Assembly: GCA_964387265.1 (NCBI GenBank)
Contig: CAYLWC010000006.1
Span: forward strand, 21,272 to 85,271
Direction of reading: 5' to 3'
Source of the DNA: an uncultured Vampirovibrionales bacterium
GTDB taxonomy: Bacteria > Cyanobacteriota > Vampirovibrionia > Vampirovibrionales > Vampirovibrionaceae
Length of the DNA stretch: 64,000 nt
Numbering within the stretch: position 1 is the first letter of the stretch; the number at the start of each line of letters is the position of its first letter. Positions 6,075 to 18,453 of this stretch are shown one piece after another. The notes beneath the pieces were generated by a model. It saw nothing but the letters and a program-made list of their open reading frames with translations, did not search any database and was not told the DNA's origin. Position numbers and translations under genes: made by a program.

Positions 6075-8015
6075 TTATTCCCACTCCACTGTGGCTGGTG
6101 GTTTACTGGTGATGTCATACAAGACCAGATCCACACCCGGTTGATTGGAAAGCCTCTGAGCCAGCGTCTTAAGGAATTCAACAGGGATCTCTTTTCCAAT
6201 GGCTGCCGGTCGCGCGGTCATATAATCATGGGTGACCACCGCCCGGATGGCGACCGAGTGCCCGCCAGCGCCACTTATATCCACAGGTACCAGCACGGTG
6301 AGTAATTGGCTGATAGCGCCATATAACCCGGTCTGGATAAACGCCTCAGAGACCATGTGATCCAGACGCCGGAGTTTGGCCAGGGTGTCTGGGGTTAAGT
6401 GGGTGGGGGTAATCTCATGCACCGTTTCCGGCAGGTGATCCCGATTTAACACTAGGGTGACCCGGTTCACTTCATGCAGCCGGTTGGGAATGTCTTGCGT
6501 CAGTTCCCGTAGAGCGTCCCAAGGGGTGCTTAAAATATCATGTTTTGCCAAAGCCGCTAAATAGCTGTAAGAGCGGTGATCACCCTGAACCCCCACGGTT
6601 TGCACTGGCAAAATCGTCCCGGAAAAGCCTTGTTGTTTGGCCAGTTCTTCCAGGTCCACGTTGGTGCGCGCGAACGTATCGGTCATAAAGGGTTTTTCGG
6701 TACAAAGCACCCGAATCCCCAAGCCGGGGCCTGGGAAGGGTTGGCGAATCACCAATTCTTCAGGTAAGCCCAGCATCCGCCCAATTTGCCGGACCTCATC
6801 CTTGTGAAGATCCTTGTTGGGCTCTACGATCATGCCTTTTTCCCGCTGCTCCTGAATCACCGGCACATCGTTGTGATGGGTCTTAATTTTATGAGCCGTG
6901 GCGCTGATGCCCCGGTTACCGCTTTCAATCAGATCCGGCCTCAAAGTCCCCTGGGCGATATAGGTGTGATCCATATCCAGATTCAGCTTTTCAATGGTTT
7001 GCTGGGTCAGTTGATAGAACACATCCCCAATAATCCGCCGCTTGGTTTCAGGATCGGTCACCTGGGACAGGGGGCCCACCAAATACCCATCCACCTGAAC
7101 CGGCTGGCTGAGAAATTGCGCTTCGGCGTGCAGCACTTCCAAATGTTTCAGGCCCAAAGCTTTCAGGGCTTCGGCGACTTTGGCGCTTTCCTCATGGCGC
7201 ATCAGGCCCGAATCGATATGGATGGCGTAGACTTTCTCAGGCCCCAGGGCTTTTAGCAGCAGTGCCGCCGTCACGGTCGAATCCACCCCGCCGCTGACCA
7301 GCACAATCACGTTGTTTTCACCCACTTGCTGGCGGATGGCCTCCAGGGTTTCCTCCAAACGATCTGAGAGCACGTAATTCCCGCTCAGGCCACAGACTTG
7401 ATACAGGAAGTTCCGAAGCATCACTTCTCCATGCTCGGTTAAATTCACTTCCGGGTGGAACTGGACGCCGACCATTTTCTTTTCGGCATGCTCAATGCCA
7501 GCGACAATCTGGTTACCATCCCGCTGAATCGAGGTGGCGATTTGTCGAAAGCCCTCGGGCAATTTGGCCACACTGTCGCCATGGCTCATCAGAACCTGCT
7601 GGGTGGCCTCGAGCCCAGAAAACAAGAGGCTGTCGGTTTTAACAGAAATATGGGTTTCTCCATATTCTTTAATGGTTTTCCCTTCCACCACCCCGCCAAA
7701 GTGATGCGTCATGAGCTGCATACCGTAACAAATGCCTAATACAGGTACACCGAGCTCAAAAAGCTCCGAAGCGCAGCGAGGAGAGCCGGGCTCATACACG
7801 CTTTCGGGTCCACCGGACAGGATGATGCCCGAAAAGCCCTTGTCTTTGAGACGAGCAATTTCCACATTGACCGGGAAAATTTCGGTATCCACGTTGAGTT
7901 CCCGGACCCGGCGGTCAATGACCTTGGTATACTGGGCGCCACAATCGAGGATGGCGACTTTATCGGTCTGTTGGGTTCGGGTTTGCTGGGTGTCTTGGGC
8001 GGGAACGGTGGACAC
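6075..8015 (-). CDS. guaA: GMP synthase (glutamine-hydrolysing), long eukaryote-like form (646 aa).
   Basis: N-terminal class I GATase (GICYGMQL catalytic Cys), ATP-PPase P-loop SGGVDSTV, and an extended C-terminal dimerisation domain. It is about 120 aa longer than the typical bacterial GuaA. Confidence 0.9.
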   Translation of the reverse strand: MSTVPAQDTQQTRTQQTDKVAILDCGAQYTKVIDRRVRELNVDTEIFPVNVEIARLKDKGFSGIILSGGPESVYEPGSPRCASELFELGVPVLGICYGMQLMTHHFGGVVEGKTIKEYGETHISVKTDSLLFSGLEATQQVLMSHGDSVAKLPEGFRQIATSIQRDGNQIVAGIEHAEKKMVGVQFHPEVNLTEHGEVMLRNFLYQVCGLSGNYVLSDRLEETLEAIRQQVGENNVIVLVSGGVDSTVTAALLLKALGPEKVYAIHIDSGLMRHEESAKVAEALKALGLKHLEVLHAEAQFLSQPVQVDGYLVGPLSQVTDPETKRRIIGDVFYQLTQQTIEKLNLDMDHTYIAQGTLRPDLIESGNRGISATAHKIKTHHNDVPVIQEQREKGMIVEPNKDLHKDEVRQIGRMLGLPEELVIRQPFPGPGLGIRVLCTEKPFMTDTFARTNVDLEELAKQQGFSGTILPVQTVGVQGDHRSYSYLAALAKHDILSTPWDALRELTQDIPNRLHEVNRVTLVLNRDHLPETVHEITPTHLTPDTLAKLRRLDHMVSEAFIQTGLYGAISQLLTVLVPVDISGAGGHSVAIRAVVTHDYMTARPAAIGKEIPVEFLKTLAQRLSNQPGVDLVLYDITSKPPATVEWE

Positions 8016-14282: not shown

Positions 14283-15263
14283 TTACTGGAACATTGCGCT
14301 GACAGACTGGTGATCGTGGATTCGTCCGATGGCTTCTCCAAGAACCGGCGCTACAGAAAGCTGAACAATCTTATCCACATTTTCCGCTTCTCGAGAGAGG
14401 GGGATTGAGTTGGTCACAATCACTTCGGTAAAGACGGAATTGGCAATCCGCTCTACAGCCGGGCCGGAGAAAACCGGGTGGGCTGCGGCGGCGTAAACGG
14501 CCATGGCGCCTTCATCCAGCAAGAGCTGGGCAGCGGAACACATGGTTCCTGCCGTATCAATCATGTCGTCAATGATAATGGCGGTCTTGTTCTGGACATC
14601 CCCAATCACGTTGTAGACTTCTGCCACGTTATGGGAGCTGCGGCGTTTATCAATAATGGCAATGGGGCAGTTGAGCTTTTTGGCGTAGACGCGGGCCCGT
14701 TCCACACCGCCCGCATCCGGGCTGACAACGACTGGGTTGACCAGGTTTTTCTCAGATAGATACCGTAGAATGACCGGGGTAGCGTAGAGGTGATCCACCA
14801 GGACGTTAAAGAAGCCCTGCAGCTGCCCGGTATGGAGATCCAAGGCTACGATCCGATCGGCTCCGGCGGTGGTGATTTGATCGGCCACCAGTTTAGCGGT
14901 AATCGGTTCCCGTCCAGCGGACTTTCGATCCTGTCGGGCATAGCCGTAATAGGGGATGACCGCGGTAATGGTATTGGCGCTGGCCCGTTTCATGGCATCC
15001 AGCATAATCAACAGTTCCATCAGGTTGTCATTGACCGGGGTACAAGTGGGTTGGATGACGTAAACATCGTGGCCACGGACACTTTCCTGAATCTGAACAT
15101 AGGTTTCCCCGTCGCTGAAATTTTTGACGATGGCGGGGCTGATTTCAGTCCCAAGGTACTGGGCAATTTCCTCAGCCAGTTTGGGATTGGCACGCCCGGT
15201 AAAAATTTTCACTTTACTGGTGTCATGAATGCCGCTATCTATCTCCGGATGAGGGAGATGCAT
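14283..15263 (-). CDS. prs: Ribose-phosphate pyrophosphokinase.
   Basis: KIFTGRANPKLAEEIA N-terminal motif, PRPP-binding loop (VVSPDAGGVERAR), and C-terminal domain. Start chosen at MHLPHPE, while the ORF extends to 15329. Confidence 0.85.
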   Translation of the reverse strand: MHLPHPEIDSGIHDTSKVKIFTGRANPKLAEEIAQYLGTEISPAIVKNFSDGETYVQIQESVRGHDVYVIQPTCTPVNDNLMELLIMLDAMKRASANTITAVIPYYGYARQDRKSAGREPITAKLVADQITTAGADRIVALDLHTGQLQGFFNVLVDHLYATPVILRYLSEKNLVNPVVVSPDAGGVERARVYAKKLNCPIAIIDKRRSSHNVAEVYNVIGDVQNKTAIIIDDMIDTAGTMCSAAQLLLDEGAMAVYAAAAHPVFSGPAVERIANSVFTEVIVTNSIPLSREAENVDKIVQLSVAPVLGEAIGRIHDHQSVSAMFQ

Positions 15264-15467
15264 CTCGATTGCCACCTGTTTGTCCTCCATTGTCGTCAGA
15301 AAACCCTGTTGCTGATTGCACACATTCAAGTTATCAGAAAAGTAATTTCAATGCAGTGATTCTGTGCGTTCTCACTCCATTAAAGTGTGCTCAAACAAGA
15401 TAATTCCCATGCCGGAGGCTGGAAAGGCTGAACTGTAATGTTTATTTACAAAGCGGTAAGGACTTTA

Positions 15468-16451
15468 TTACAGAAGATGGGTAGCATAGGACTGGCCATC
15501 TTCCGTCAGCGTGTACTCTGTGACGTCCGCCGTACCGGTTAAATCAGGCAGCATGGCCAGATAGCCCTGGCCGAGACAGGTTTCCAGAACACTGTGGTTC
15601 ACTGGAGTGAGCCCTGATTTTACCAGGAGTGAATTGACCCGCTTGAGCGAGAATTTGTCCACACCCTCAAAATAGGTCATATAATAGGCGGCTAAAAGCA
15701 GATAGTCGCTAGAGGTACTTGCATTGGCCCGATCAAAAAGATCTGAAAGAGAGTCGATGATACCGAAATCCACTTTATTCATATCTGATATTCCTCGACC
15801 CGATTTTGTTTTCTCAGTCATTGTGCCGAGATTAGCGGATTCTCCAAGCTCTATTTCATGGGGCAATGGCCGAGAGGCGGGTCTTTCTTCGGATGGGGAT
15901 TCCAGATCCTTCATTAAGGAATCCATGACGGCCTCAAAATCGTCTTTGACGTTTTCATCTAGCTCAGGTTGAGGCTGGGCGTAGGTCGGCAAAACTTCAG
16001 GTTGGGGCATGCTGGCGGCAACAGGTGATCCTAGAGGAGCCGCTTGTGCGTATGCAACTTCCCGCTCAGGCAAGGGGGCCGGCTTTGGCTGGCTGAACTG
16101 GGGGACAGACTCTGGCGTTGGAGGAGGGGCGGCAGTTTGAGGCGCTTGTGGCGCTTCTATTGTTTCTGACGGAGGCGCTGCCTCAACCGGTTGAGGGGGG
16201 AGCTCCTGGGTTGCAGGTTGGGTAGGCTCACTGGGTACTGGCTCTGATTTTTCCTTTCCTTCATTTTCATGGTTGTGGGCCGGATCAGAGGACTGGGCTA
16301 GGGGAAGCGTAATGGGGACATAGCTGTCATCCAGAAGGACGCGGAACCACTTGTCCATTTGCTTGGAAATAAAATAGACGTCGTCTGAAGAAAGGTTGAT
16401 ATAAAGGTCTTCCAGCCGAAGATTGATTTCATAGTGGTGGGGAGCGTCCAT
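15468..16451 (-). CDS. Hypothetical three-part protein: N-terminal ~45-aa domain, long Pro/Gln/Ala/Glu-rich disordered linker, and a C-terminal ~110-aa domain.
   Basis: Long ORF. Its N-terminal domain is paralogous to the adjacent 16495..16638 small ORF. The low-complexity linker is PQPVEAAPPSETIEAPQAPQTAAPPPTPESVPQFSQPKPAPLPE. Confidence 0.5.
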   Translation of the reverse strand: MDAPHHYEINLRLEDLYINLSSDDVYFISKQMDKWFRVLLDDSYVPITLPLAQSSDPAHNHENEGKEKSEPVPSEPTQPATQELPPQPVEAAPPSETIEAPQAPQTAAPPPTPESVPQFSQPKPAPLPEREVAYAQAAPLGSPVAASMPQPEVLPTYAQPQPELDENVKDDFEAVMDSLMKDLESPSEERPASRPLPHEIELGESANLGTMTEKTKSGRGISDMNKVDFGIIDSLSDLFDRANASTSSDYLLLAAYYMTYFEGVDKFSLKRVNSLLVKSGLTPVNHSVLETCLGQGYLAMLPDLTGTADVTEYTLTEDGQSYATHLL

Positions 16452-16494
16452 GGGGGCCTCTTCCGGTTTACAGACTCACAACGGATTCGTTTGA

Positions 16495-16638
16495 CTATTC
16501 GCGGGGTTCCTGGGTGACCAGCATATTGCGCCAGTTATCCATCTGGGTTTCAATGAACTTGGAATCGTCGCTTTTCAGTTCCAGCTCCAGGTCCCCTTTT
16601 TTCAGCTTGAAAACATATTCGCTCATGAAGGGTTTCAT
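16495..16638 (-). CDS. Small hypothetical protein (~47 aa), paralog of the N-terminal domain of the downstream 327-aa protein.
   Basis: YVFKLKKGDLELELKSDDSKFIETQMDNWRNML aligns with YEINLRLEDLYINLSSDDVYFISKQMDKWFRVLL of the neighbour (about 44% identity over 34 aa). The ORF extends to 16677. Confidence 0.4.
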   Translation of the reverse strand: MKPFMSEYVFKLKKGDLELELKSDDSKFIETQMDNWRNMLVTQEPRE

Positions 16639-16720
16639 CCTCTTTCTCTTACTCTCCAAGTGACCTGATAAGACCACCCATCAATCCATTATATGAAATT
16701 TTTGCGGAATCGGGGACAAC

Positions 16721-16756
16721 AAAAACCCCTGATACGATTTTATCAGAGGTTTTTTG
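16721..16756. terminator. Bidirectional intrinsic terminator-like hairpin.
   Basis: AAAAACCCCTGATA-cgattt-TATCAGAGGTTTTTT: a 10/11-bp stem flanked by an A-tract and a T-tract. It lies immediately 3' of the 16771..17211 minus-strand ORF. Confidence 0.5.
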
Positions 16757-16770
16757 ATTGAAAAAAGGGT

Positions 16771-17211
16771 TTAAGCGAGATAGTTCATTTGAGGGAGATA
16801 CGGATTTCCTCCCGGAAAACCACCTGGCGCCTGCGGGTAACCCGGTGCCTGGGGAATACCTGCTGGTGGTGCATATGGACTGGGCACGCCATACATGTCC
16901 ATTGGAGCACCAGCCAGATCATTGGCTCCCTGAGGTTGGGGTAAAAACTGCGGTTGTGGATATCCGGCTGGAGGCGGTGGCGGGAAGCCAGGCAACATGG
17001 CAGGGGGACCCATTGCAGGACCTTGTGGTGCAAAGCCGGGAGGCCCACCCATTTGCATTACCATGGGGTCAAATATCCCTTGCGGTGCTGGGCCTTGCGG
17101 GACCGGGGGTTGTCCATACGGAGAAGGCGGGGCAAACATCCCTTGTGGGGATCCGGGACCAAAACTGTTTGGGGCGCCAATATTCATAATTTGTTGATAC
17201 TCCTCTTTCAA
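16771..17211 (-). CDS. Pro/Gly/Gln/Ala-rich low-complexity (prion-like) protein, 146 aa.
   Basis: Repetitive PQGPAPQG / PQAPGYPQAPGGFPGG composition. Same strand as its neighbours and followed by the 16721-16756 terminator. The plus-strand alternative ORF looks random. Confidence 0.4.
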   Translation of the reverse strand: MKEEYQQIMNIGAPNSFGPGSPQGMFAPPSPYGQPPVPQGPAPQGIFDPMVMQMGGPPGFAPQGPAMGPPAMLPGFPPPPPAGYPQPQFLPQPQGANDLAGAPMDMYGVPSPYAPPAGIPQAPGYPQAPGGFPGGNPYLPQMNYLA

Positions 17212-17431: not shown

Positions 17432-17827
17432 TTAGCAGAGCAGGACGATTCGGGCATCCGCCTGCCGAAGCCTTTGGATCATGACCAAAATGATACGGCG
17501 CATGCCTTCCGGCAAGGAATCCAGCTGGGATTCAAAGCTTTTTCGGGAAATAGCCATGATTTCCGCCCGCTCCGAAATAATCCGGACACTGGCAGAGCGT
17601 TTGCTATCCGGGTCAAAAAGGCACATTTCACCAAAAATTTCATTGGCTCCAAGAATCGCGATGACCACTTCTTGGCCGTTGTTGTTTTTCTTGACGACCT
17701 CGACTTCCCCGCGCCTGATGATATAGGCGCAATCCCCATCTTCGCCTTCCCGCAGAACATACTGCCCCTGGCTGTATTCAATGATGTCCAGGGGAACTTT
17801 TTTAGGAGGCTGGTTTGAAGCGGTCAT
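17432..17827 (-). CDS. Cyclic nucleotide-binding domain protein (single cNMP-binding domain).
   Basis: Beta-roll with FGEMCLF...RSASVRI phosphate-binding cassette motif. 131 aa. Confidence 0.75.
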   Translation of the reverse strand: MTASNQPPKKVPLDIIEYSQGQYVLREGEDGDCAYIIRRGEVEVVKKNNNGQEVVIAILGANEIFGEMCLFDPDSKRSASVRIISERAEIMAISRKSFESQLDSLPEGMRRIILVMIQRLRQADARIVLLC

Positions 17828-18453
17828 ATCTTGCTCTCCGTAAAGCCGGGTGAGCTTGCCGGAAGCCCTTTATAGCCGGCTTGGCTCCGAACAAACGCTT
17901 CAATCTGACCTTGTTGATATTTTTCTTCCAGCAGATTCAAGCGATCGACCAACGGATAATCACCCTTGGGAATGGTGGCCAGCTTCGGGTTCCTGCGTTT
18001 CATCTCTTGCCAGAGAATGGCTTCTTGTTTCCAACCAGCGATTTCCTCCTGAATGGAGTTGTAAGGGTCGTTATGCAGGGCTTCATGGGCAATAATTGCC
18101 GCAAGCGCCTCGGGTGGGGCGTCTTCATGTCGCCGATTGATAAAAATCGCGTGATGGCCCGTGGTACTAATCCAGCTCAAGGCGTCGTAATTGCGGACAT
18201 GCTTGCTGATTTCTCGCAGATCTTTAAATAGGACCCGAATCGGTTTTTCCAGGATAATATCCAATGATTCCTGGCCTTCGGATGCTTCCAGGTGTTGAAA
18301 GGCTTTAATAATGGCGGCGTCATGGCTACTTCGATAATAAGAGGTCAGCGTATACCGATTTTGAGAAAAGGCCGGAAACGCCACCATAATGGTAGCAAGG
18401 CTCAGCAGGCATGAAACAACCAGATACTGAAACTTATTGGGAATCTTGCTCAT
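17824..18453 (-). CDS. Hypothetical secreted protein, translationally coupled to the downstream cNMP-binding gene.
   Basis: Signal-peptide-like N-terminus (LVVSCLLSLATIMVAFPAFSQ). ATGA overlap with the start of 17432..17827. Confidence 0.5.
   Translation of the reverse strand: MSKIPNKFQYLVVSCLLSLATIMVAFPAFSQNRYTLTSYYRSSHDAAIIKAFQHLEASEGQESLDIILEKPIRVLFKDLREISKHVRNYDALSWISTTGHHAIFINRRHEDAPPEALAAIIAHEALHNDPYNSIQEEIAGWKQEAILWQEMKRRNPKLATIPKGDYPLVDRLNLLEEKYQQGQIEAFVRSQAGYKGLPASSPGFTESKI

Follow-up and report, generated by a model that had tools for sequence, protein, structure and literature searches.

Why does a gene for a protein of some 40 amino acids lie directly 5' of a gene whose product opens with a copy of the same small domain, and do the two proteins act together? 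The question is posed by a locus in a stretch of 64,000 nucleotides (here called the window) from an uncultured Vampirovibrionales bacterium, in which three genes, termed A, B and C, are encoded on the minus strand and follow each other in the direction of transcription as A, a terminator-like hairpin, B and C. A first, sequence-only reading of the locus had described B as a paralog of the N-terminal module of its larger neighbor C, and had seen in A, B and C an unusual three-gene set, possibly a scaffold/adaptor system or an assembly chaperone for the disordered protein encoded by A. The analysis reported here singles out B and C as the conserved pair, and we propose, tentatively, that they are a microprotein and a tether/adaptor protein acting via a common module.

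Gene B and the related domain of its neighbor

Gene B (16495..16626, minus strand) encodes a microprotein of 43 amino acids, MSEYVFKLKKGDLELELKSDDSKFIETQMDNWRNMLVTQEPRE, predicted to form a beta-hairpin followed by a helix. The small open reading frame (ORF) had been recorded with 47 codons from a start at 16638. It is present at that place and on that strand, but the length has to be corrected, since the second ATG, at 16626 (MSEYVF...), is most likely the start codon: most orthologues open with GTG or ATG at MSEY, and gene calling on the source contig gave the 43-amino-acid form. In the AlphaFold2 (AF2) model, predicted as a single chain like all structures discussed here, residues 4-10 and 13-19 are strands and residues 22-38 a helix, with a predicted local distance difference test score (pLDDT) of 84.

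A total of 77 called homologues of B were collected. In the 23 nucleotide versions that differ from one another, the first, second and third codon positions had entropies of 0.44, 0.09 and 1.03, respectively, and B genes from Vampirovibrionales loci differed from that of the window by 9-18 synonymous and only 0-6 non-synonymous codon changes. The protein is conserved along its full length, and 16 residues are invariant in the aligned family (Y4, F6, K9, K10, E14, E16, L17, S19, D20, D21, F24, I25, E26, Q28, W32 and R33). Identity is about 90% across an order and falls to 52-72% in three Gastranaerophilales loci; one gut version is indexed in 829 blocks of an assembly collection. Median identity to the window was 92% for B, as compared with 72% for the N-terminal domain of C, 57% for its middle helix and 57% for its C-terminal domain, and at locus L030 B is still 95% identical while the N-terminal domain of C is only 52% identical. 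These comparisons show B to be a real gene under strong purifying selection that evolves much slower than C and, with its synonymous excess and its retention in all loci examined, not a remnant. The short-ORF annotation can be trusted in this case, B being called in RefSeq (WP_303673361.1) under the name 'hypothetical protein', the name that A, B and C all carry in the databases (for example EMOOHJMP_00079-81 in MW495066.1).

One feature of the B reading frame was followed separately. The codons of K9 and K10 are AAA-AAA in 23 of 23 distinct versions, within ...AAAAAAGG (window 16590-16600, minus strand, codons 8-11). At the other lysines of B, AAA and AAG readily replace each other, and of the Lys-Lys pairs encoded in these genomes 52% (141/273) are written AAA-AAA. 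A programmed frameshift at the invariant CTGAAAAAAGG was considered and rejected; six A's are short for slippage, and a frameshift product is unlikely because both shifted frames reach stop codons within about 15 codons. An RNA element in place of a small protein was likewise rejected, given the variation at third codon positions and the lack of any match when the region was searched against Rfam.

The paralogy of B and the N-terminal module of C, as first suspected, is well beyond chance. By BLASTP, residues 7-41 of B match residues 6-40 of C with 15/35 identities (E 3e-7), and when the two families were compared as profiles with hhalign, B aligned to positions 1-44 of C with a probability of 98.4% (E 4.7e-15). 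The N-terminal domain of C (residues 1-46, 16314..16451, minus strand) thus appears as a diverged copy of B, and the AF2 models have the topology of two strands and a helix in common. No third copy of the module was found in the window with a hidden Markov model built from B together with the N-terminal domains of C. The invariant residues of B include the surface charges K9, K10, E14, E16, D20, D21, E26 and R33, whereas the N-terminal domain of C conserves mainly a hydrophobic core, the SDD cap, a glutamine and a tryptophan (Y7, L16, I18, L20, S22, D23, D24, F27, Q31, M32 and W35). The fold is therefore common to both, but the surfaces differ.

In 25 of 25 non-redundant related loci, from Vampirovibrionales and gut Gastranaerophilales and thus from two orders, B lies directly 5' of C on the same strand. 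Of these loci, 18 came from scanning a single genome for each species, others were retrieved by exact-protein look-ups (in Vampirovibrio chlorellavorus, in Gastranaerophilales of the gut and in three divergent lineages known from metagenomes), and one is a GenBank record. The gap between the two genes ranges from 12-16 nucleotides in Gastranaerophilales and L031 up to about 430 nucleotides in L016, and from this layout B and C are probably co-transcribed. Flanking genes differ by lineage: the gene downstream is prs in the majority of Vampirovibrionales and mnmA in three loci from Gastranaerophilales, and it is a different one elsewhere; there is one B-C copy per locus, in chromosomal synteny with prs. 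Of the supposed three-gene set only B and C occur in every locus, A being missing 5' of B in many, so that the set does not hold as a conserved unit. Judged by the best 150 of the 353 clusters of the C family, B-C is a two-gene module so far found only in Vampirovibrionia.

Neither A, B nor C gave a match in Pfam, NCBIfam, PHROGs or PADLOC, Pfam assigned no family to any of the 96 C homologues collected, PDB profile searches with the B and C families returned no sequence relative, and a literature search found no published work on these proteins. B and C are two protein families without prior description. A type II toxin-antitoxin pair was considered and rejected: none of the proteins matches Pfam, NCBIfam or PADLOC, there is one copy per locus with prs synteny, and the window holds a single pair.

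Layout of protein C

Gene C (15468..16451, minus strand, with the stop codon at 15468-15470) encodes 327 amino acids. Its 96 collected homologues belong to a family of 353 clusters at 50% identity (E up to 1e-3), and nearly all full-length sequences examined have the same succession of N-terminal domain, linker, helix and winged helix. The N-terminal domain, a disordered linker and a distinct C-terminal domain had been proposed from the sequence, and the AF2 confidence profile agrees with that division; what had been left out is a conserved amphipathic helix inside the disordered region.

In the AF2 model the N-terminal domain has strands at residues 7-13 and 16-22 and a helix at 25-40, with mean pLDDT values per 10-residue block of 86-94 over residues 11-40 and of 77 over residues 1-10. 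It is followed by linker 1 (residues 47-165, 15957..16313), an acidic, disordered segment rich in Pro, Ala, Gln, Val and Glu, with block means of 48-58 over residues 51-160; across the family this linker is 50-284 residues long and composed of 28% P, 16% A and 11% Q. The amphipathic acidic helix DDFEAVMDSLMKDLE (residues 166-184, 15900..15956) is seen both as a conserved alignment block and as an AF2 helix (block mean 83 over residues 171-180), and on the model it is probably a docking helix. A second variable linker separates it from the C-terminal domain of 98 residues (230-327, 15471..15764), for which block means were 92-98, dropping to 81 at the wing loop. C is acidic in all its segments, with median net charges of -4 for the N-terminal domain, -10 for the linker, -6 for the middle helix and -6 for the C-terminal domain, of which the wing has -3 and the recognition helix H3 -1.

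The verdict that none of the three proteins has a recognizable family stands at the level of sequence, but the C-terminal domain of C is recognizable by its predicted fold as a winged helix-turn-helix. Its structural neighbors are the winged helices of MarR, PadR, HrcA, F93, TubR and ORC proteins (AF1382 2qvo, PadR 4ejo, STIV F93 2co5, TubR 4asn and ORC1 WH 7jps). The domain shares only the fold with MarR/PadR-type winged helices: identity is 7-21%, and helix-turn-helix and winged-helix Pfam models gave no match to the 96 family members even at E up to 1. Unlike those regulators, its head and wing are acidic, it sits on a disordered linker of about 180 residues and it lacks their dimerization helices. 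The helix-turn-helix carries the conserved polar or basic residues K270, R271, N273, K278, N285, H286 and S287. Since the segments of C are acidic, the wing included, the winged-helix head is predicted to be more likely protein-binding than DNA-binding, and the charge of C as a whole argues against canonical DNA binding, although the conserved helix-turn-helix residues point the other way.

Candidate roles of the pair

The reading that we favor, while holding its probability to be somewhat below even, is that B and C are functionally coupled as a microprotein and a tether/adaptor protein that act via their common module. In such a system C would be a long acidic tether, disordered over most of its length, that bears interaction modules at both termini and an amphipathic docking helix midway, and B would be a free-standing copy of the N-terminal module, encoded just 5' of C. 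B could act by pairing with the N-terminal domain of C, sheet to sheet or via an edge strand, or it could take the place of that domain on some third protein under tight constraint; by either route B would determine the manner or the degree in which C is engaged. That the two genes are co-transcribed, that their products interact physically, which way regulation runs and what kind of ligand is bound are inferences on our part. The structural half of the microProtein definition agrees with the data, B being a single domain of 43 amino acids (<20 kDa) homologous to residues 1-44 of C and with the same predicted fold, and the scaffold/adaptor role suggested in the sequence-only reading would be a reasonable candidate.

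Several observations weigh against such coupling. B is more conserved than the domain of C with which it would pair, which better fits another, more constrained partner. As B also has invariant surface charges that the N-terminal domain of C does not share, a constrained third partner is likely, and a simple decoy picture may be incomplete. The confident AF2 monomer of B suggests that B may fold without a partner. The genomic context gives no functional hint, because only lineage-variable housekeeping genes (prs, mnmA and others) surround B-C. Finally, the closest structural neighbors of the winged helix are all DNA-binding regulators, and on the model the conserved K270, R271, K278, N285, H286 and S287 may allow nucleic-acid binding.

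The first of these points leads to a rival explanation, which we regard as improbable though by no means negligible. B might be an independent, essential-type microprotein working on a core cellular machine, with no joint action with C, and the adjacency would then reflect origin only, the 5' end of C having been duplicated to give B or a copy of B having been fused into C. The higher conservation of B than of any part of C, its retention at L030 next to a much diverged N-terminal domain, and exposed charges that are invariant in B and not in C would all be expected of such a protein. On the other hand, adjacency and orientation are kept in every one of the 25 loci and in both orders while the surroundings change, the gaps of 12-16 nucleotides suggest co-translation or an operon, and an adjacency that is merely historical would be expected to break somewhere over such an evolutionary distance.

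A different role for C itself is unlikely in our judgment, namely that of a DNA-binding winged-helix regulator or nucleoid-associated protein whose N-terminal module oligomerizes, with B as an anti-oligomerization or co-regulator subunit. The MarR-like to ORC-like neighbors of the head and the seven conserved residues of its helix-turn-helix speak for such a role, and the acidity described above speaks against it.

Gene A and the wider setting

Gene A (16771..17187, minus strand) encodes a disordered, almost uncharged protein rich in Pro, Gly, Gln, Ala, Met, Tyr and Phe. The low-complexity ORF had been read as 146 amino acids from a TTG at 17211; place and strand were right, but the protein most likely starts at the ATG at 17187 and has 138 amino acids, as indicated by the N-terminal motif of its relatives and by the called protein P0276 from another assembly, to which the 138-amino-acid form is identical. 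P, G, Q, A, M, Y and F make up 82% of the 146-amino-acid ORF, and the 138-amino-acid form has 3 Asp and no Lys, Arg or Glu. A is thus prion-like/FG-like in composition, which is a compositional class and not a homologous family.

A-like ORFs (69-349 codons, rich in Pro, Ala, Gly, Phe and Gln) lie 5' of B in 13 loci (L001, L003, L005, L006, L007, L010, L011, L013, L014, L015, L016, L028 and L029), about half of those examined and all from Vampirovibrionales. Most start with the motif M..NFPP.GAP, in the window MNIGAPNSFGPG, and most end with the motif MFG.G..L[DN]..A, as in the tails PMFGCGQKLDTEA, FGCGGKLNKLA, GSNLNVQA and GGNLNIPNA; the tail of A in the window, GGNPYLPQMNYLA, matches this motif loosely. 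The five V. chlorellavorus-type versions differ in length by whole codons, with the frame kept, and in 9 of 10 pairs there are at least as many synonymous as non-synonymous changes (e.g. 30 vs 19), from which it follows that the frame is coding and moderately constrained. The suspicion that the low-complexity frame might be an artefact of composition can accordingly be laid aside, given also the counterparts in 13 loci.

A word-indexed search of 5.8 billion proteins returned no sequence homologue of A beyond the identical copy, and matches obtained with tblastn were rejected as driven by composition. No A-like ORF was found 5' of B in L009, L012, L017, L018, L019, L030 and L031 nor in Gastranaerophilales, and in L016 it lies 1.1 kb from B. 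Because A is missing in many loci, displaced in L016, separated from B by a terminator and without a detected homologue, its sequence record places it outside the conserved core, as a fast-evolving disordered accessory at most.

The hairpin after A (16717..16760, minus strand) resembles an intrinsic terminator and lies between A and B-C. It has a core stem at 16721-16754 and an extended stem at 16717-16760, followed by a U-run, and starts 11 nucleotides (extended stem) to 17 nucleotides (core stem) past the stop codon of A. Its existence, noted earlier for 16721-16756, is supported by RNA folding, with a stability of -17.9 kcal/mol, a z-score of -3.89 (about -3.9) and none of 200 shuffles equally stable; a generic terminator scan did not include it among its predictions. 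A sigma-70-like promoter match (TTTTCA, 16 nucleotides, TAAAAT, with an extended -10 TG) overlaps the hairpin at window 16737-16764 on the minus strand, and the start would fall just 5' of B. Such matches occur in the region at chance expectation, so that it is no more than a hint that B-C might have a promoter of its own.

Repeats are conspicuous in two of the A-like proteins: APQFGP recurs at least 5 times in L014 (~7040-7318) and GGFPAPPAP 4 times in L015 (6637-6876), resembling Pro/Gly/aromatic tracts of the FG-repeat or annexin-A7 kind, and both proteins close with the short conserved C-terminal tail. In human-gut-type Gastranaerophilales the gene 5' of B encodes instead an unrelated low-complexity protein of 907-949 amino acids with no Pfam match (L023 3170-5893, L024 3116-5893, L025 3044-5893), which has hydrophobic segments, (DGV/DGQ) repeats and a Gly/Thr/Ser tract of sample-dependent length. 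At L026 (4715-5893) only a 392-amino-acid ORF is called, covering the C-terminal part of this protein.

Could A, B and C together form a condensate or matrix system? A would then be the sticker-and-spacer component (FG-like or prion-like), C the acidic, proline-rich scaffold and B a regulator of valency, with the tail of A docking on the winged helix of C or on B. The 13 A-like ORFs with their aromatic/Pro/Gly repeats (PQFG units in L014, GGFPAPPAP units in L015), the recurrent C-terminal motif and the long disordered regions of C are in line with the idea. We nevertheless consider it quite improbable in view of the strong terminator between A and B in the window, the many loci that lack A or have it at a distance, the loose fit of the window tail to the motif and the lack of any detected homologue of A. 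Doubtful, if slightly less so, is a combined version in which B would heterodimerize with the N-terminal module of C, or the two would compete for a single constrained partner, so that B would act as a switch for the anchoring of an acidic disordered scaffold or for its valency; in Vampirovibrionales this scaffold would form with A a condensate-like, class-specific structure. For an assembly chaperone of the disordered protein, nothing was found in support.

The least probable reading by far, that B is a leader peptide or upstream ORF regulating C, or else a duplicated 5' end of C in decay, draws on the shortness of B, its position directly 5' of C on the same strand and its resemblance to the start of C, and is essentially refuted by the 16 invariant residues over the full length, the large excess of synonymous over non-synonymous changes, the confident autonomous fold predicted for B, a spacing to C that varies from 12 to about 430 nucleotides and the absence of any Rfam RNA family in the region.

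Other genes of the window surround this block. On the 3' side of C lie prs (14283-15329) and then an AtaL/polyketide-cyclase-like gene. Directly 5' of A, on the same strand, are a stand-alone 131-amino-acid protein with a cyclic-nucleotide-binding domain (17432-17827, minus strand; PF00027, E 4e-22) and a 209-amino-acid protein with an N-terminal hydrophobic segment, the motif HEALH (HExxH) and no Pfam match (17824-18453, minus strand), the stop of the latter gene overlapping the start of the former by 4 nucleotides. This gene pair is not kept beside A/B/C in V. chlorellavorus.

A defense or phage gene was also considered and rejected, there being no match to PADLOC or PHROGs; the sole match in a phage database was to a record that mirrors the V. 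chlorellavorus chromosome. This record, 'Microcystis phage MaAM05, complete genome' (L028; GenBank MW495066.1, 273,876 bp), has at 77682-92182 the gene order of that chromosome (compare L001 and L003), namely oxidoreductase, dinB, A-like, B, C, prs, an unannotated ORF at the AtaL-like position and trpG. Given its housekeeping content and the synteny of B-C-prs across Vampirovibrionales, the MaAM05 record may be, or contain, Vampirovibrio chromosomal DNA. A 2026 paper (PMC13157829) regards the sibling PhiMa05 as a jumbo cyanophage that has 'prophages' in V. chlorellavorus.

The nearest parallels to the pair are found among eukaryotic microProteins, a concept reviewed in PMC9638782, with examples such as LITTLE ZIPPER versus HD-ZIPIII and Id versus bHLH. 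Like these, B is a very small single domain with homology to one of the interaction domains that make up a larger protein, C, with action via the common domain presumed. Unlike them, B-C is bacterial, adjacent and operon-like, B is more conserved than the copied domain, the interaction is here presumed, and the module is a beta-hairpin plus helix and not a zipper or a helix-loop-helix. Also among the closest known systems is the small KEOPS subunit Gon7 (4wx8_D, 8k20_F), which has a beta-beta-alpha fold and completes the Pcc1 sheet; the modeled fold of B gives no specific functional lead. For C, acidic, proline-rich or poly-anionic disordered segments that join small interaction modules occur in PopZ and in the delta subunit of Gram-positive RNA polymerase, the latter with a winged-helix-like domain, but the domain order and the folds differ from those of C, homology was not detected, and the likeness is one of architecture only.

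No other non-photosynthetic bacteria are as closely related to the oxygenic cyanobacteria as Vampirovibrionia, which include a predator of Chlorella as well as common members of the human gut. Their cell biology is, to our knowledge, almost unknown, and an identity of about 90% in a protein of 40 amino acids across an order points to an important and unstudied function in these bacteria. What is new is the combination of a microprotein with a parent-domain partner and of a disordered tether with a predicted winged-helix head, from two undescribed families. We know of few descriptions of a microprotein beside its parent-domain protein in bacteria, and B-C would provide a clean natural case of this arrangement.

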